Source: a bacterium
GTDB lineage: Bacteria > Patescibacteriota > Minisyncoccia > Phycocordibacterales > UBA2100
NCBI GenBank assembly: GCA_016789445.1
Contig: JAEUQT010000001.1
Span: forward strand, 131,603 to 195,602
Length of the DNA stretch: 64,000 bases
Direction of reading: 5' to 3'
Positions within the stretch are counted from its first letter, which is position 1. Every line of letters starts with the position of its first letter. A program made the translations under genes and the position numbers. The notes under the pieces were generated by a model that saw only the letters and a program-made list of their open reading frames with translations, made no database searches and was not told the DNA's origin. This document shows positions 4,602-56,921 of this stretch, one piece after another.

Positions 4602-5051
4602 TCAGGAATCCCAGAAATTCCTGCCGGTTTTCAACGCTTCGAAATAGGTCGGGAGCGCAGAGAAGTGCGGCGTCGGGATGTTTTCGATGTCACACCACTG
4701 CCATCCTTCCATCTTCTCTGGCTCCATCACCTTCGGGTCGCCATTCTTCCAGTCGGCAATGAGCCCGATGTCGACGTAGTGCTTTGGCGCATAATCTTTC
4801 AGATTGAGGAGACGGAGGAAGCGGACGTTCTCGATCTCGATCCCGGCTTCTTCCCTGACTTCGCGTTTCGCGCATTCTTCGAACGATTCCATATACTCCA
4901 TGTGTCCGCCGGGCCAGCTCCATTCGCCCGCGCCGTGCGAACTCACGCGCTTCCCCATGAGAACCTTCCCCTCCTTGAATACCATCACACCGACGCCGAC
5001 TTTCGGTCGTGGATTTTCTTCCATAGGGGAAGCATACGGGAAACGGGACAA
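4602..5051 (-). CDS. NUDIX hydrolase
   Basis: Nudix box GGHMEYMESFEECAKREVREEAGI. An alternative start is MEENPRPK at 5024. Confidence 0.85.
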   Translation of the reverse strand: MSRFPYASPMEENPRPKVGVGVMVFKEGKVLMGKRVSSHGAGEWSWPGGHMEYMESFEECAKREVREEAGIEIENVRFLRLLNLKDYAPKHYVDIGLIADWKNGDPKVMEPEKMEGWQWCDIENIPTPHFSALPTYFEALKTGRNFWDS

Positions 5052-5090
5052 AAAGAAACGGCGGCCGCGAAGCGGCCGCCGTACATGTCA

Positions 5091-5273
5091 TCAGAACCAA
5101 CTGACGACGATCTGGTATGCAGCGCGATACATCGCAACCGCTTGATCCTCAAGCCATTGCAGGGCGTCGTGCAAGTAATACACGAAGAGCCCCAAGATGA
5201 TGAACCCGATGATCAGTGCCAGAAAGCTGAGATCGCTCGGGGTCTCCGGCTTACGCGAATCCTCGTGATACAT
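5091..5273 (-). CDS. small membrane protein (60 aa)
   Basis: ORF-track entry with one hydrophobic helix (LSFLALIIGFIILGLFVYYL). GGGAG lies upstream of the ATG. Confidence 0.4.
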   Translation of the reverse strand: MYHEDSRKPETPSDLSFLALIIGFIILGLFVYYLHDALQWLEDQAVAMYRAAYQIVVSWF

Positions 5274-5283
5274 CGCGCACTCC

Positions 5284-5442
5284 CTAGAGCCACAGGAACG
5301 ACGTCGGGGCCATGAAGAACGGCGCGGCCGCGAGCATCATGATCCCGAACGAGACCATCATGCCGATCATGCCGTAGATGAAACCCTTCGTCATCCATTC
5401 GCTGTTGTCGCCTAGCGGCGACACCGGGGGTATCTTGAACAT
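5284..5442 (-). CDS. small membrane protein (52 aa; below the ORF-track cutoff)
   Basis: Manual translation gives MFKIPPVSPLGDNSEWMTKGFIYGMIGMMVSFGIMMLAAAPFFMAPTSFLWL. A strong AAAGGAGG lies 7 nt upstream of the ATG. Confidence 0.45.
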   Translation of the reverse strand: MFKIPPVSPLGDNSEWMTKGFIYGMIGMMVSFGIMMLAAAPFFMAPTSFLWL

Positions 5443-5573
5443 GCCACATCCTCCTTTCAGATGTACTGCCCCTCATACCCTACTCCTCTCTCGAGAAGGG
5501 TCAACTAGTGCGCGTGACCGAACCACTCCTCGACCCATGCACGTATTCACGATTCATAGCTCGAGTATACGGC

Positions 5574-6167
5574 CTAGTTCCCGTACCAGCTTGTTCTCCA
5601 GATGCGCATCATTTCGATCTCACGGCTCTGGGAAGTGATGATGTTGTCAGCAAGCGTGCGCATCTCATCACGAGCTGTGCTCGATTCCAACATCGAAGCC
5701 ATCATGACAGCCATCTCGTGATGCGGAATCATTTGGTCTATGAACTCACGATCGAATTGGGCGTCGGAAACGCTTCTGAGCTCGTCGTTGTCCCCGGTCA
5801 TGCCATCCATGTGCATGCCGTGCTCCGTTCCCATCCCGCCTTGCGGTGGCGCCGAGCCGAACCAATCCTGATACCAAGATTTCATTTCAGCGATCTCGCG
5901 CTCCTGTGCTTCGATGATGCCATTCGCCAATGAGATTATCTCTGGACGCTTCGAGCGCTCAAGCGCGATTTCTGCCATGGCGATCGCACCCTCGTGGTGC
6001 GGGATCATCTGTACGATGAAGTGCTGGTCGATATTCTGCCGCATCTCTGAGCCACCAGACATCATATGCATGCCTCCACGGCCTACGCTGGATTGTGTGA
6101 GGGTATATCCGATGCCGGTACCGAGAACAAGCATGGCTACACCGACAATAAGTGCGTTCTTTTCCAT
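5574..6167 (-). CDS. DUF305 domain protein (secreted or membrane-anchored; metal-associated family)
   Basis: ORF 5574..6464 trimmed to MEKNALIVGVAMLVLG (6167). It has two repeats of the F...MIPHH(E)GA/MA motif typical of DUF305. Confidence 0.85.
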   Translation of the reverse strand: MEKNALIVGVAMLVLGTGIGYTLTQSSVGRGGMHMMSGGSEMRQNIDQHFIVQMIPHHEGAIAMAEIALERSKRPEIISLANGIIEAQEREIAEMKSWYQDWFGSAPPQGGMGTEHGMHMDGMTGDNDELRSVSDAQFDREFIDQMIPHHEMAVMMASMLESSTARDEMRTLADNIITSQSREIEMMRIWRTSWYGN

Positions 6168-6210
6168 AGTGAAGTTGATTAGTTTCCGGATTAAGTGAAA
6201 CGTTACCGAG

Positions 6211-6558
6211 CTACGGTTCTTTGCGGTTATGGATACCGCGCGAGACAAGCTCTTGGTAGAGCGTCGGTCGTGGGTTCCATTGATATGAACGAAGCCGGAC
6301 AGTCTCAGATACGCACATCGGCGTTCCGACTCGAAACACAGCAAGGCCGATGAACAGGACGAAAACCGACAAGATGGAAGAGAACATACTCTGCCACAGC
6401 GAGAGATGTTCGAGAGCCGCTTCAGAGCAGAGCGCCGCCTGCGCGGTCTGCAGCGGACAACCAAAGTGATGATCGGTGTGCGAAAGCAGGACCGGTAGTC
6501 CGAAAGCAGCGACGAAAAGCAGGATCACGATAAGCACTGAGGCAAGCTGTGCTTTCAT
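6211..6558 (-). CDS. hypothetical membrane protein
   Basis: N-terminal and central transmembrane helices, a HHFGCP...C cysteine/histidine motif, and a position upstream of DUF305. Confidence 0.5.
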   Translation of the reverse strand: MKAQLASVLIVILLFVAAFGLPVLLSHTDHHFGCPLQTAQAALCSEAALEHLSLWQSMFSSILSVFVLFIGLAVFRVGTPMCVSETVRLRSYQWNPRPTLYQELVSRGIHNRKEP

Positions 6559-6593: not shown

Positions 6594-7139
6594 CTAGAAC
6601 CAGCGACGTACTTTCTTCTTATATTCAAGATAGGTCTTCCCGAATTTCTTCTCGAGATACGCCTCCTCGCGCGCAACGACACCGTAGTGGAGGACGAAAT
6701 GCACGAAGACGATCATGCTCAGTATCCAGAGCGAATTGAGCCAGATCGCGAACCCAATGAGGATGAGCGTCATACCGAGATACATCGGATTGCGGCTCAG
6801 TGAATACGGAAGCGCCGTGACGATCGCAGTCGGAATCTTCCGCACATCGATCTCGGTTTTCGCATCAGCAAAGCGCTGCGCCGCCCACGCGATGAGGAAG
6901 ATGCCGAGCGCGATCACCGTGAGCCCGAGCGGCAGATCGTACGACTCAGGGATGAACGGCTTCGGTAAGAACCAATCGAGCACAAACCCGACGACAAGGC
7001 CGAAAAGGAAAATAAAAGGTGGTAATGCGATCACGTTCGGCGAATCAGTAGTGCTTTGCATGATCGTAGGATACGCGTTTGCGCCGCGGCTTTCAAGAAA
7101 GCGAAACGGCGGCTCTGTTGCCGCCGTTTCCATCATCAC
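6594..7139 (-). CDS. isoprenylcysteine carboxyl / phospholipid methyltransferase family membrane protein
   Basis: C-terminal motif SRNPMYLG...VAREEAYLEKKFGKTYLEYKKKVRRWF. An alternative start is MQSTTDSP (7061). Confidence 0.8.
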   Translation of the reverse strand: MMMETAATEPPFRFLESRGANAYPTIMQSTTDSPNVIALPPFIFLFGLVVGFVLDWFLPKPFIPESYDLPLGLTVIALGIFLIAWAAQRFADAKTEIDVRKIPTAIVTALPYSLSRNPMYLGMTLILIGFAIWLNSLWILSMIVFVHFVLHYGVVAREEAYLEKKFGKTYLEYKKKVRRWF

Positions 7140-16610: not shown

Positions 16611-16747
16611 CGCCAGACAAGGATACTTTGGAAACCCTCGGTTTTCCAACGGTCGCCGAAGCGACCTGCCTTCCGACACGGGGAACTCCCGTTCCCCGAC
16701 CCCCTCCCTATCCAAGTCTGGCAACAAATCTCGTTGCACTCAATTTG
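16611..16747 (-). repeat. tRNA-trailing element, subfamily 2 (after tRNA-Gln)
   Basis: It shares gaaaccctcggttt and cttccgacacgg[hairpin]ccgacccctccc with the copy at 21842-21989. An inverted copy of the tRNA 3' end (16712-16729) forms an 18-bp hairpin with 16743-16760. A degenerate direct copy (cgccagacaaggat) lies at 16611-16624. Confidence 0.7.
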
Positions 16748-16818
16748 TTGCCAGACTTGGATTCGAACCAAGATACACTCCTCCAGAGGGAGTAGTCCTA
16801 CCATTAGACGATCTGGCA
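16748..16818 (-). tRNA. tRNA-Gln (anticodon CUG)
   Basis: Manual cloverleaf: TGCCAGA / GTCT..GGAC / ACTCC CTCTGGA GGAGT / CTTGG TTCGAAT CCAAG / TCTGGCA A. No encoded CCA. Confidence 0.85.
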
Positions 16819-20409: not shown

Positions 20410-20533
20410 TATACCCCACTCATGCGAGGTGCAACAATTTCATGAATCCTAGGCCCCCAGCTCCTTTTCAGCGTCGATAGAAAGCCTCGCTTTATATAGA
20501 CTTGCTGGCTCGAGAATAGAAAACCCGGGTTTT

Positions 20534-21415
20534 CTATTCTACTCGCTGCGCGGCGTCTATGAACGACTGGATGTCCCCTTCGAGCACCTTCTCGATGTCA
20601 CGGCGCTCATGCTCGGTACGATGGTCTTTGACGAGCTGGTACGGATGCAGCACATACGAGCGGATCTGGCTTCCCCACTCGATCTTTGTCGAAGCCCCCG
20701 CCGAAAGTCCGCGCGCTTCCGCTTCCGCTGCCGCTTCACGCATCTGGAACAGCTTTCCGCGGATCATCTCGAGCGCTTTCTCTTTGTTCTGGAGCTGGCT
20801 GCGCTCCGACGTGACATGGACGGAAATTCCGCTCGGCTTGTGCGTCATGCGCACGGCCGTGTCGCGCTTATTTACGTTCTGTCCGCCGGGGCCGCCGCTG
20901 CGCGCGACAGTGATCTCAAGATCGGTCTCGGGGATATGGTCATCACCCACGTCGGGCAGTTTCGGCAATACTTCCGCGAGCGCGAACGAGGTCTGCCGCT
21001 TTCCCGCGGAGCCGAAGGGAGAAATACGCACCAAGCGATGCACGCCTGCTTCTTTCTTCAAGGCGCCGTATGCGCCGTTGCCGCTTACTTCGAATGAGAT
21101 ACTGCGGAATCCTCCCATCGAATTCTCGTTGGATGAGAGGAGTGCATTCTTCCATCCGCGGTTGGCAGCGTATTTGGCATACATGCTGTAAAGGATGCGC
21201 GCGAAATCCTCCGCATCATCCCCTCCCGCGCCTGCGATGATCGAGATGATTGCGTCACCCTTGTCGTAGGAGCCTGCACCCGCAAGTTTCGCCTTCAGAT
21301 CTTGGTACTCCTTCAGTGTCGCCTGTGCCTTATCTTTATCCGACCAGAAATCCGGCAACCCCATTGCCGCCTCGATCTCTACGATGCGTGCCTCGATCAC
21401 CTCTTTCCCTTGCAT
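20534..21415 (-). CDS. prfB: peptide chain release factor 2 (short form, no frameshift site seen)
   Basis: SPF and GGQ motifs ([18 protein letters not shown]). ORF 20534..21442. Start likely MQGKEV. Confidence 0.9.
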
Positions 21416-21451: not shown

Positions 21452-21685
21452 TCAATGCAACGGCACTGCACGTACCAACATGATACGTATCGCGCCTTCC
21501 CATTGGACGAGGTCCCACACTCGAAATCGCGAGATACCTTCACCGTCTCGCGACGGAAGCGGAATTTCTTCCGATGTCTCACCGATATTCAAAAGCATGA
21601 GTATGACTTCCTCGTGATCAGGGTCGAGCTCAGCAACAAACTGAGGCTCATTGAGCCGATTACGGCAGTCCGCGAATACTCGCAT
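21452..21685 (-). CDS. hypothetical protein (77 aa)
   Basis: A strong GGAAAGGAGG lies 6 nt upstream of the ATG at 21685. No recognisable domain. Confidence 0.5.
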   Translation of the reverse strand: MRVFADCRNRLNEPQFVAELDPDHEEVILMLLNIGETSEEIPLPSRDGEGISRFRVWDLVQWEGAIRIMLVRAVPLH

Positions 21686-21724
21686 GCGCGACCTCCTTTC
21701 CTCTTCCTGAAGTGTACACCCTCT

Positions 21725-21800
21725 TGGAGCCGAAGACCGGGATTGAACCGGTGACCCCGTCTTTACGAAAGACGTGCTCTACCAACTGAGCTACTTCGGC
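21725..21800 (-). tRNA. tRNA-Thr (anticodon CGU), CCA encoded
   Basis: GCCGAAG TA GCTC..GAGC A CGTCT TTCGTAA AGACG GGGTC ACCGG TTCAATC CCGGT CTTCGGC T CCA. Confidence 0.9.
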
Positions 21801-21841: not shown

Positions 21842-21989
21842 ACGGTCCGGGATTTCACTGCTCGCCGTATTCTCGGCTGCGCTTTCGAAACCCTCGGTTT
21901 CGAATAACTTCCGACACGGAGGGGGTCCGGTGGGTCCCCCTCCGACCCTCCCCCGTTCAATCCCGGTCGGGCCTCTCGCTACGCTCGTG
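21842..21989 (-). repeat. tRNA-trailing element, subfamily 2 (after tRNA-Thr GGU)
   Basis: Same conserved blocks as 16611-16747. The inverted copy gttcaatcccggtcg (about 21953-21967) is complementary to the tRNA T-arm/acceptor. The degenerate direct copy acggtccgggatt lies at 21842-21854. Confidence 0.7.
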
Positions 21990-22062
<73 letters not shown>

Positions 22063-25670: not shown

Positions 25671-25899
25671 GAGTGACGGGACTCGGTCACAGATATTTCT
25701 TGCGCCGTCGGACAGATTTTTTCGCGACCATAGGCATCGTCTCGGCCAAGAGCTCATTCGTCGCCGTCGCTCCTCATTCCTCTCGGCCCTGATTTTGCGA
25801 CCCCGTCTGCTGACGGGTCCGCCGCAAAATCTTTCGAGTCCCGCCACTCTGCTGAAAAACGCAACAACCCCGACGGCATGCGTCGGGGTTGGCGTTTTG
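25671..25899 (-). repeat. tRNA-trailing element, subfamily 1, composite (after tRNA-Asp)
   Basis: The direct copy gagtgacgggactcg at 25671-25685 matches tRNA 25903-25917 and is followed by GTCACAGATA. The inverted copy is ttcgagtcccgccactc at ~25832-25848. A terminator hairpin CCCCGACG/CGTCGGGG with U-run (25855-25888) lies next to the tRNA. Confidence 0.8.
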
Positions 25900-25973
25900 C
25901 GCGAGTGACGGGACTCGAACCCGCAGCCTTTCCCGTGACAGGGGAATGCTCTAACCAATTGAGCTACACCCGC
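25900..25973 (-). tRNA. tRNA-Asp (anticodon GUC)
   Basis: GCGGGTG TA GCTC AATTGGTTA GAGC A TTCCC CTGTCAC GGGAA AGGCT GCGGG TTCGAGT CCCGT CACTCGC G. Confidence 0.9.
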
Positions 25974-56346: not shown

Positions 56347-56730
56347 GGGGATGATTGGCTTCGACAGGGAGATCGATGCATATACATGCATGGCGGAAGT
56401 GGGTATCTTCCCAAAAACACCCAAACTCTAAGTGCAAACAAAACTGCACGGGGGGTTCTCTCGCCTATTCAGGTGAAGGACCTCGGCTTTGCTTTCGCGT
56501 AAGCCAAGGCAACCGTTCGTTCAGAGGTCTCCAATACTCTGATGCGAGCGTCATATCATTGGATACGGCTTCCCTATCACACCGTAGGTTAGTCTAAAGA
56601 AAGAGTGTCCGACGCGAAGCGATCTTGTGCGTTCCATACTCTCCGCGTTCAAAACCTTTGAACGCCCTACGCCTTGTAGATGTGTGTATGCGTTTCTCTT
56701 TGCACCGCGGTTCGATTCCGCGCATCTCCA
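56347..56730 (+). ncRNA. ssrA: tmRNA (SsrA)
   Basis: The 5' GGGGATGATTGGCTTCGACAGGGA pairs with the 3' ...GCGG TTCGATT CCGCG CATCTCC A (G3-U70). The tag frame 56434-56499 encodes ANKTARGVLSPIQVKDLGFAFA, then TAA. No encoded CCA. Confidence 0.93.
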
Positions 56731-56921
56731 CAGCCAATGCAAGCCGCCTTCCAGGCGGCTTTTGCATTTGCATTGCGACGGTGGAGATGAAGAAAGCGCC
56801 TGCGCGCTTTCTGCGGGGGTCTCGAAAGGCGGAGCGCTGTTCCGACAGCAGGCGGAACCGCGAGCCGGGGTCGCGGAAATTCAAAGGCGACGGCGTTTGA
56901 ATTATCTGTGACCGATTCCGC
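56731..56921 (+). repeat. trailing element, subfamily 1 (after tmRNA)
   Basis: Terminator AAGCCGCC ttcca GGCGGCTT TT (56741-56765). Inverted copy GGTGGAGATG + hairpin + GCGGGGGTCTCGAA. Core AGGCGGAGCGCTG, P-a 56839-56858, CCGCGAGCCGGGGTCGCGGAAAT...ATTATCTGTGAC (ends 56912). The direct copy cgattccgc at 56913-56921 matches 56713-56721. Confidence 0.85.

Follow-up and report, generated by a model that had tools for sequence, protein, structure and literature searches.

Integron cassettes end in attC sites, in which conserved arms, matched as RYYYAAC ... GTTRRRY boxes (R''/L'', L'/R'), enclose a variable middle, with a direct repeat of 7 nt and one attI as target. Islands and phages that use a tyrosine integrase to enter tRNA genes leave their insert flanked by a direct repeat running from the T-loop to the tRNA 3' end. 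In IS110/IS1111 bridge RNAs and in tandem interspaced guide RNA (TIGR) systems, a structured noncoding part carries one segment complementary to the top strand of the target and another that has the sequence of that strand; Patescibacteria are among the hosts of TIGR systems, whose arrays are tandem units of ~36 nt with two 9-nt spacers each, beside a Tas (Nop-domain) gene (PMC12045711). Miniature inverted-repeat transposable elements (MITEs), doublets of repetitive extragenic palindromes forming hairpins (REPINs), and palindrome-associated transposable elements (PATEs) derived from IS200/IS605 are small, protein-less, hairpin-forming, and multi-copy. Here we analyze a stretch of 64,000 nt (the window; GenBank contig JAEUQT010000001.1) and report that the elements behind its genes for tRNA-Thr(GGT) and tRNA-Gln(CTG) are copies of a widespread, protein-less insertion module of Patescibacteria, apparently previously undescribed: we found no description of it in the literature. 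The module follows the general rule R(1..n), spacer, rc(R(1..k)), core, R(1..n), where R is the target sequence and rc its reverse complement. Its conserved folded core with target-copied, exchangeable arms is unlike MITEs, integron attC, and known guide-RNA transposons.

All eight tRNA genes of the window are carried by the minus strand (ARAGORN), and the Thr(GGT) and Gln(CTG) elements therefore sit directly 3' of their tRNA genes. A preliminary description, made from the sequence alone, had assigned the two to a second subfamily, with a core of its own but the same architecture of tRNA-derived arms as the first. All the strings it quoted are found at the coordinates it gave. Shared block 1, ctttNgaaaccctcggttt(t)cNaa, lies at 16626-16649 in the Gln element and 21882-21904 in the Thr element, and the shared block cttccgacacgg at 16670-16681 and 21908-21919. 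Block ccgaccccctccc is present as described at 16696-16708 of the Gln element, whereas the Thr copy is slightly different (ccgaccctccccc). The inverted copy in the Thr element, 21955-21969, is the reverse complement of 21996-22010 within the tRNA gene; the hairpin described for Gln, 16712-16729 with 16743-16760, is exact but extends to 20 bp rather than 18 (16710-16729 with 16743-16762). Both distal direct copies are also in place (Table 1).

The Thr and Gln elements align over two long identical blocks. The 15-mer of block 1 has 4 matches at up to 2 mismatches, against 0.10 expected, and 4 were reached in 0/100 shuffles; the 12-mer CCGTGTCGGAAG is not significant at 2 mismatches, its exact matches being restricted to the Thr and Gln elements. 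A covariance model built from the copies of other genomes is strong in the 64 kb only at the Thr (77.9 bits, E ~1e-17) and Gln (71.1 bits, E ~6e-16) elements, and it misses the subfamily-1 copies (best 8 bits, E 1.7), in keeping with a different subfamily-2 core. Cores of both subfamilies have GGGGUCG...CCGUG(A/U)C around a helix and may conceivably be homologous, but the covariance model gives no significant cross-match. Subfamily 1 has its own two-domain fold, and each subfamily taken separately shows compensatory changes of its own; in subfamily 1, comparison of five window copies shows them at 13/32 pairs, with one G·U pair invariant in 5/5. The tabulation of isoacceptors by subfamily that the preliminary description proposed is given in Table 1. 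We also observe that the subfamily-1 element at 56780-56913 (+) lies downstream of the transfer-messenger RNA (tmRNA) gene (56347-56733), whose 3' end is tRNA-like, and that its arms resemble the tmRNA T-arm (gggggtctcgaaag ... gtgaccgattccgccgcc).

Read in the tRNA sense, the consensus order is tRNA, spacer, T', a core with helices Pa and Pb, Pc, and R_d. The spacer of 0-100 nt frequently holds a terminator-like hairpin and at times a gene; spacers related to that of the Thr element (ACGTAGCGAAGCGGAGTGAG) are found in elements of relatives. T', 11-21 nt long and invariably ending ...TTCGAAC, is the tRNA sequence in reverse complement, beginning at G53 and proceeding outward. It is followed by GGGAGGGGGUC, helix Pa, GUGUCGGAAG, an optional hairpin, helix Pb (NNN-GAAACC-GAG-GGUUUC-N'N'N'), AAG, hairpin Pc, AGUGA, and finally R_d, which repeats in direct orientation the part of the tRNA between T-loop and 3' end. 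The core spans ~100 nt, with covarying helices joined by the invariant junctions GGGGGUC, GUGUCGGAAG, and GAAACCGAGGGUUUC. In the predicted folds of the two window elements (z-scores -2.8 and -4.3), T' pairs with R_d and closes a multi-branch core; in both, the T'-pairing part of R_d has been kept and the remainder has decayed.

Copies elsewhere were sought in three collections with the pattern GTGTCGGAAG, a gap of 2-30 nt, and AACCGAGGGTT (loci are numbered from L001). Species-representative genomes gave 47 matching loci, all but one of them in Patescibacteria or unclassified metagenome-assembled genomes (MAGs), with Paceibacterota, Parcubacteria, Saccharibacteria, Kaiser-, Yonath-, and Colwellbacteria represented; L015 is a chance match in an Alloprevotella MAG. 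Metagenome contigs contributed 79 loci and 2.9 million viral contigs none. About 5 of the 126 matches are due to chance and lack the rest of the core, and nearly all others are from Patescibacteria. A same-strand tRNA ends at most 260 nt upstream in 65 (62%) of the 105 loci with enough upstream sequence to be evaluated, against 2.5% of background positions in those loci, so that the blocks are not generic motifs unlinked to tRNA genes, the alternative that the preliminary description had named. The linked tRNAs span 27 anticodons and 15 amino acids, copies detected by the covariance model alone are again behind tRNAs (three in L018 and three in L012, for example), and ~38% of copies are at targets other than tRNAs.

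As a separate observation, assemblies of the window organism and its relatives (L003-L009 and many short metagenome contigs) often stop within tens of bases of a tRNA or module. The modules evidently break short-read assemblies, and copy numbers in MAGs are probably underestimated.

The arms are specific to the tRNA that each copy adjoins. Among 46 non-redundant tRNA-linked copies, the longest exact match to the own tRNA has a median length of 11 nt for T' (compared in reverse complement; 6 nt in cross-pairs, p 2e-16) and of 14 nt for R_d (6 nt in cross-pairs, p 7e-27). T' corresponds, in inverted form, to the first 9-21 nt of R. The direct repeat begins in the T-loop or T-stem and usually stops within 0-2 nt of the tRNA 3' end, and its length ranges from 9 to >100 nt across copies, with an exact part of 13-43 nt. 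At positions where R_d and the tRNA differ, T' follows the tRNA at 48 and R_d at 4. The main such difference is a recurrent change in the T-loop of R_d, from GUUCGAUUC to GUGAGAUUC or by loss of G57, which gives a tandem G·A or a bulge in the T'·R_d helix. The inner GAAC/GTTC of the arms derives from the tRNA T-loop and is lacking at protein-gene targets. The host gene remains intact, since R occurs in two copies. Specificity for the own tRNA, the same core lineage with Thr or Gln arms (see below), and the strong tRNA linkage elsewhere show directly that the arms are generated, not fixed. The preliminary argument that two cores sharing one layout mean that the architecture is what is selected or generated is supported as well, since both subfamilies share the layout and have target-derived arms.

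These results bear directly on the simplest alternative, a generic intergenic repeat or terminator motif of the repetitive extragenic palindrome type that resembles tRNAs by chance. The elements do lie between genes, are repeated and rich in hairpins, and are frequent break points of assemblies, but the tRNA linkage, the specificity of each arm for its own tRNA, and the change of arms with the target over a constant core refute this reading, which we regard as having next to no probability.

The core itself is under strong pairing constraint. In an alignment of 106 distinct sequences that was fitted to the model, so that pairing is somewhat inflated, 96.8% of cells pair compared with 83.2% in shuffles; an independent MAFFT alignment gives the same picture. 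Changes on both sides affect 12 of the 18 core pairs, amounting to 272 compensatory cells, a value reached in 0/500 shuffles and with no slid register comparable. The G·U pair at the base of Pa (columns 10/120) is kept in 84/106 distinct sequences, and hairpin caps are asymmetric between strands: GCGAAGC, at 11 times background, is found 27 times in sense and 4 times in antisense, and C-GGGA-G 35 and 11 times, respectively. Because G·U pairs are conserved in both subfamilies and the caps are strand-asymmetric, the strand that folds is the gene-sense (tRNA-sense) strand. Pa loops are GNRA-like, with one UUCG loop. Six or more copies have a circularly permuted core that keeps the same junctions: Pa, now open, runs on into the T'·R helix, and ~4 nt connect Pb to GGGGGUC. 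Permuted copies (L014, L021, L031, L051, L052, L056, L078, L084, L090, and L128) have GGGGGUCGG after Pb rather than before Pa, with Pa stacked against the T'·R helix; in some of them the distal copy is interrupted, between GGUUC and GAAUCC, by a Pc-like hairpin. Two further candidate features were rejected: a pseudoknot between the CCGA of the Pb loop and UCGG motifs, the loop being GCU or GUG in related cores, and AGTGAG as a conserved motif preceding both arms, which is found in a subset of copies only.

Such a core could also belong to a functional RNA that is transcribed together with the tRNA or gene and then freed by tRNA processing, in which T' and R would be two guide segments, complementary to the sense and antisense strands of the target, respectively, and the core a protein scaffold or a new ribozyme. 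The strong covariation, invariant junction nucleotides, sense-strand G·U pairs, GNRA-like and UUCG loops, and the tandem G·A motif where T' and R_d meet all suit an RNA, as does circular permutation, which is typical for small ribozymes and RNA motifs; the permutation and the invariant junctions are indirect hints of a new class of self-cleaving ribozyme. Many copies follow a tRNA without an intervening terminator, the preference of T' for the functional tRNA over R_d (48 versus 4 positions) is guide-like, and two-strand guides exist in systems of Patescibacteria (PMC12045711). Many other copies, however, have a strong terminator-like hairpin and T-run directly upstream of T', leaving no room for a promoter, and some are antisense to, or within, a neighboring gene. 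T' and R overlap and pair mutually, unlike the guide pairs of bridge RNAs and TIGR, and no associated protein was found among the neighbors of the 126 loci. Known RNA families and ribozymes are rejected: a 161-nt element searched against Rfam at E <=10 gives only spurious microRNA hairpin matches of at most 17 bits, no Rfam ribozyme (hammerhead, twister, twister-sister, pistol, hatchet, hepatitis delta virus, or hairpin) matches at or near its gathering score, and a subfamily-1 copy has one weak twister-sister match (19 bits, E 3.7). The GCGAAGC caps also count against an RNA, since they form exceptionally stable DNA mini-hairpins. On balance, a functional RNA, the main rival reading, seems to us somewhat unlikely, although it deserves to be taken seriously.

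Comparison of orthologous sites indicates that copies come and go, and that cores and arms can part company. The Thr(GGT) site is occupied in the window and in L136, where flanking genes are 82-86% identical to those of the window and the 300-nt block of tRNA, element, and tRNA matches the window's at 100% identity; it is empty in L140, a more distant relative, and in L018, with the two Thr tRNAs 67 and 40 nt apart. At the Gln site, the window and L143 have the same degenerate R_d in common, and the Gln element in both is therefore one and the same old insertion, into which further pieces are nested in L143, a subfamily-1 core among them. The Gln site is empty in L144 and L145. In L141 it holds a different element, with Gln-specific spacer, T', and R_d but a core 88/91 identical to that of the window's Thr element. 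This shows that one core lineage can be re-armed, or that cores swap loci by gene conversion; the spacer and arm lengths, which differ from those of the window's Gln element, favor an independent insertion in L141. At the empty Gln site of L145, we also note a large serine recombinase gene (4741-6351; Resolvase and Recombinase domains, 536 aa) abutting the 3' end of tRNA-Gln, which points to a separate integrating element at the same tRNA.

The same comparison speaks to the possibility that the element is a host-beneficial device for tRNA expression, acting in 3' processing, termination, or stability, inherited vertically and with its complementarity kept by selection. An element of one or other subfamily is carried by 8 of the 9 tRNA-like genes of the window, tmRNA included; the block shared with L136 is perfectly conserved between diverged flanks; and T' still complements the tRNA perfectly, whereas R_d decays where it is unpaired. 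Yet orthologous tRNAs in close relatives have no element or a different one, and the empty sites argue against an essential role. Copies also occupy the ends of protein genes, a gene start, and positions within open reading frames (ORFs), and they stack in tandem. A perfect 20-nt complement is not attainable by point mutation at each tRNA and must be templated, and pairing of T' with the 3' half of the tRNA would compete with tRNA folding. We consider a host device improbable.

Targets other than tRNAs include the 3' ends of rplL and rpsI (Table 1); the layout there is unchanged, each target having supplied the arms, and some copies are antisense to, or within, a neighboring gene. In the rplL copies, 9 of 10 differing codons differ at the third position (4/4 in L039; 5/6 in L112, with one codon replaced), which suggests that each copy was once functional in a different lineage. 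Module and cargo occur together in several arrangements. In L043, a Nudix ORF of ~140 aa with its promoter and terminator lies between tRNA-Asp and T'; in L120, two cargo cassettes separate tRNA-Tyr from the module downstream; in L078, the module is followed by a Nudix cassette; and L012, L013, and L019 have tandem modules. Cargo types are Nudix, an NYN-like protein, and an S66 peptidase, with no recombinase among them. The elements themselves, at 130-200 nt, are without an ORF, and among the neighbors of the 126 loci the only recurring protein family is the small Nudix, besides syntenic housekeeping genes, with no integrase.

Several side observations concern cargo and targets. Small Nudix hydrolase genes (~140-160 aa) recur beside modules and tRNAs of nine isotypes (L012, L034, L037, L041, L043, L077, L078, L079, L084, and L108; also L136 and L140 near tRNA-Met/Asp) and are clearly cargo in L043; among the neighbors of the modules the family was counted at 11 loci. 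Other samples of the same organism as the window have a 1178-bp S66 peptidase cassette (LD-carboxypeptidase/MccF-like; L002 541-1718, L001 1-538) exactly at the 3' end of tRNA-Asp (window 25896-25905). This cassette, which the window strain lacks, separates the tRNA from the subfamily-1 element, and the 10-bp repeat CTCGCGCAAA flanks it. A third, very short type of junction ends cargo cassettes in several unrelated genomes (L001/L002, L043 2862, L085, L120 ~845 and 1360, L132/L133). It reads GTTC(G/C)AAC-A(G/T)CGTCCA, then 2-4 nt and the 3' strand of the host tRNA acceptor, often with CCA, and may be another form of attachment site of the same tRNA-end integration system. In a class I methyltransferase ORF the core is at the same position in three genomes (L038 ~6872-6958, L086 10425-10511, and L126 1384-1470), apparently in frame and adding ~29 codons, with target-derived arms not clear.

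A direct repeat of a tRNA 3' end is a classic sign of integrase-mediated insertion, as Williams reportedly set out in 2002, and the elements might accordingly be attachment-site scars of larger integrase-bearing elements, prophages or islands, that entered tRNA 3' ends and were later deleted. Cargo cassettes and arrays at the same tRNAs, and the large serine recombinase beside tRNA-Gln in L145, would fit. The distance between tRNA and T' is mostly 0-100 nt, however, so that a near-perfect deletion would have to recur in >100 loci; the motif is without matches in the 2.9 million viral contigs; no integrase lies near any of the 126 loci; and known attP flanks do not combine a conserved, covarying core with an inverted arm that matches the target. 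Scars of this kind are, in our view, a very unlikely origin. Other routes to repeated arms were rejected as well. A simple staggered-cut target duplication does not agree with a repeat that stops sharply at the gene end or with rplL copies that differ at third-codon positions. For a retron, a diversity-generating retroelement, or a primer-binding site of the long terminal repeat type, there is no reverse transcriptase nearby and T' often falls short of the tRNA 3' terminus; in the Gln copy, T' matches the genomic trailer rather than CCA.

Set against the systems described at the outset, the module resembles integron attC in closing a cassette, which at times holds a cargo gene, with an inverted arm followed by a structured middle and by a direct arm repeating the sequence of the insertion point. 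It is likewise meaningful only as a folded single strand, as the covariation and strand-asymmetric loops attest, and cassettes form arrays with cargo ORFs (L012, L043, L078, and L120); the inner ends of the arms, ...GAAC / GTTC..., recall the AAC/GTT of the attC R boxes. The arrangement is inverted, however: in the module it is the middle that is conserved and the arms that are copied, from many tRNAs and protein-gene ends instead of one attI. It lacks the attC boxes, its direct repeat is 13 to >100 nt long, and no attI was seen, nor any IntI gene in a Pfam scan of 40 window ORFs (38 of them >=200 aa) or among the neighbors of the 126 loci. With tRNA-integrating islands and phages, the module has in common the direct repeat flanking the insert, the restoration of the gene end by inserted DNA, and, at protein targets (L039, L112), repeat copies from different lineages that differ at synonymous sites. 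It differs in its size of 130-200 nt without an integrase, in its conserved structured core and target-matched inverted arm, and in that one core family serves >=27 tRNA types as well as non-tRNA targets.

The likeness to IS110/IS1111 bridge RNAs and TIGR guides is the pair of segments, one complementary and one identical to the target, which in the module flank a stem-loop. Unlike in those systems, no DEDD- or Nop-type protein gene is in or near the modules (the scanned window proteins have no match to PF01548 or PF02371), the arms overlap, pair mutually, and measure 9-21 nt or longer, and there is no second, donor-binding loop. Long direct repeats, from 13-43 nt exact to >100 nt, are left where IS110 inserts at a dinucleotide core without long duplication, and modules are single units of 130-200 nt rather than arrays of 36-nt units. 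MITEs, REPINs, and PATEs are assembly-breaking like the module and, like it presumably, mobilized in trans. The inverted repeats of a MITE, however, are conserved within the family, while those of the module are copied from each target; the duplication of 9 to >100 nt is not the short one of fixed length left by a MITE, and IS200/IS605 insertion leaves none at all. No TnpA/TnpB partner was seen near the 126 loci.

We class the module with small non-autonomous insertion cassettes at tRNA gene ends, and there is a substantial chance that its arm-programming logic is new in kind. The fuller reading, in which it is mobile but non-autonomous, forms the right end of small cassettes, and acts as a folded single strand, we hold to be an evenly balanced proposition. 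The single strand could be DNA, taken up for instance by naturally competent cells, or RNA; the window organism carries type IV pilus genes, and pilus and competence genes are found in these organisms (PMC12455944). The T'·R helix would be a duplex copy of the target beside a core recognized by an enzyme supplied in trans, and insertion and spread would use the conserved gene end as a site of recombination or homology, with the proximal copy R_p letting the host gene survive insertion. Between lineages, the module could spread by recombination through the flanking conserved tRNA genes and through the core as portable homology.

Several points weigh against a mobile folded strand of this kind. 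A fixed attachment site carried by the element does not by itself explain how both arms come to be re-copied at a new target, and gene conversion of cores between loci could mimic re-arming. The 100% identity to L136 could reflect strong constraint and not recent transfer, and the presence of an element at 8/9 tRNA-like genes could also indicate a host function. GNRA-type and UUCG loops and the tandem G·A are equally compatible with a functional RNA as with folded single-stranded DNA. No circular or excised form was observed, and no recombinase, transposase, or reverse transcriptase is in or beside the elements, the Pfam scan of the 40 window ORFs having given nothing relevant. A bolder possibility, which we entertain tentatively, is a programmable targeting device, with a folded core and two arms that read both target strands and are re-templated at each move; a protein-less element of ~150 nt would then home to dozens of tRNA genes and protein-gene ends by means of a host or trans-acting enzyme or its own catalytic RNA.

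The genomes of Patescibacteria are tiny, yet nearly every tRNA-like gene of the window carries the module, and the same core recurs in Kaiserbacteria, Paceibacteria, and Saccharibacteria. If the single-stranded DNA form is used, the module would tie natural competence to site-specific gene acquisition; if the RNA form is used, it could represent a new class of guide or ribozyme. In either case, modules break metagenome assemblies at tRNAs and mark entry hotspots for small cargo genes (Nudix, NYN-like, and S66 peptidase).

The window itself is bacterial chromosome, Kaiserbacteria-like (Patescibacteria), with genes for CTP synthase, FtsEX, RF2, LigA, GatA, FtsH, RecG, type IV pili, and tmRNA. 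The closest named protein to its PyrG is from Candidatus Kaiserbacteria (90% identity), and homologs of its HD protein carry the labels Minisyncoccia or Parcubacteria. The chromosomal housekeeping genes rule out a phage origin, phage similarity being limited to tRNAs. In an Rfam scan of the window, only tRNA and tmRNA passed the gathering score. Group I introns reported in tRNAs of Patescibacteria (PMC13011429) are anticodon-loop introns, unrelated to the module.

Table 1. Coordinates of the Thr(GGT) and Gln(CTG) elements, elements at the tRNA-like genes of the window, and non-tRNA targets in other loci
Feature	Window position or locus	Strand	Remarks
Host tRNA-Thr(GGT)	21989..22062	-	Subfamily 2; ARAGORN; Rfam tRNA 71.6 bits
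Thr proximal copy R_p	about 21990-22010		Last ~21 nt of tRNA, T-loop to 3' end
Thr spacer	21971..21988	-	ACGAGCGTAGCGAGAGGC, between tRNA and inverted arm
Thr T' arm	21955..21970	-	Inverted copy CCGACCGGGATTGAAC of tRNA-Thr ~53-67; inner end is complement of G53
Thr conserved subfamily-2 core	21879..21956	-	Covariance-model match; covariation
Thr core, junction GGGGGAGGGTC	21944-21954	-	
Thr core, helix Pa	21918-21943	-	
Thr core, junction GTGTCGGAAG	21908-21917	-	
Thr core, helix Pb	21884-21904	-	TTCGAAACC-GAG-GGTTTCGAA
Thr core, 3' part	21855..21883	-	AG, hairpin Pc (GCGCAGCCGAGAATACGGCGAGC), AGTGA, then distal arm
Thr R_d arm	21842..21854	-	Distal direct copy AATCCCGGaCcGT of tRNA from T-loop on; only T'-pairing part preserved
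Host tRNA-Gln(CTG)	16747..16818	-	Subfamily 2; perfect 20-bp hairpin of T' with 16743-16762 (3' 16 nt of tRNA and 4 nt of trailer)
Gln T' arm	16710..16729	-	ATTTGTTGCCAGACTTGGAT
Gln hairpin loop	16730-16742	-	13 nt
Gln subfamily-2 core	16623..16710	-	Covariance-model match; fold
Gln core, Pa	16680-16697	-	GGGA loop
Gln core, GTGTCGGAAG	16670-16679	-	
Gln core, extra hairpin	16651-16666	-	UUCG-capped
Gln core, Pb	16628-16649	-	
Gln R_d arm	16611..16624	-	ATCCttGTCTGGCg, degenerate
tRNA-Asp(GTC)			Subfamily 1
tRNA-Met(CAT)	26539		Subfamily 1
tRNA-Met(CAT)	27425		Subfamily 1 and partial second unit
tRNA-Ser(GCT)			Subfamily 1
tRNA-Ile(TAT)			Subfamily 1-like; distal copy not clear
tmRNA			Subfamily 1
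tRNA-Thr(CGT)			No element
rplL 3' end	L039, L112, L131		
rpsI 3' end	L040, L119, L129		
AlaX/AlaRS-like ORF 3' end	L124		First 43 nt identical, then diverged over >100 nt; T' is complement of first 9 nt
Start of metal-transport gene, other strand	L033		43-nt exact repeat
Another gene start	L105		
Within methyltransferase ORF, apparently in frame	L038, L086, L126		

Some minor observations concern the window's surroundings and its relatives. The subfamily-2 model has a marginal match at 20472-20552 (-), overlapping the end of prfB (18.8 bits, E 0.004 by a rough calibration), where a terminator-like hairpin is followed by a Pb-like hairpin; it may be a decayed copy or a chance match. In L017 (5422-5640), the terminator hairpin of the spacer and a hairpin after R_d have identical stems and loops that are mutually reverse complementary, and the region between the inverted arms may flip. 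Between tRNA-Thr(CGT) and prfB, the window has ~280 nt (21452-21725) with a 77-aa ORF of no known function. In the relative L136, prfB follows directly after tRNA-Thr(CGT) (5087-5092) without these ~280 nt, and a 77-nt insertion lies just upstream of tRNA-Thr(GGT).

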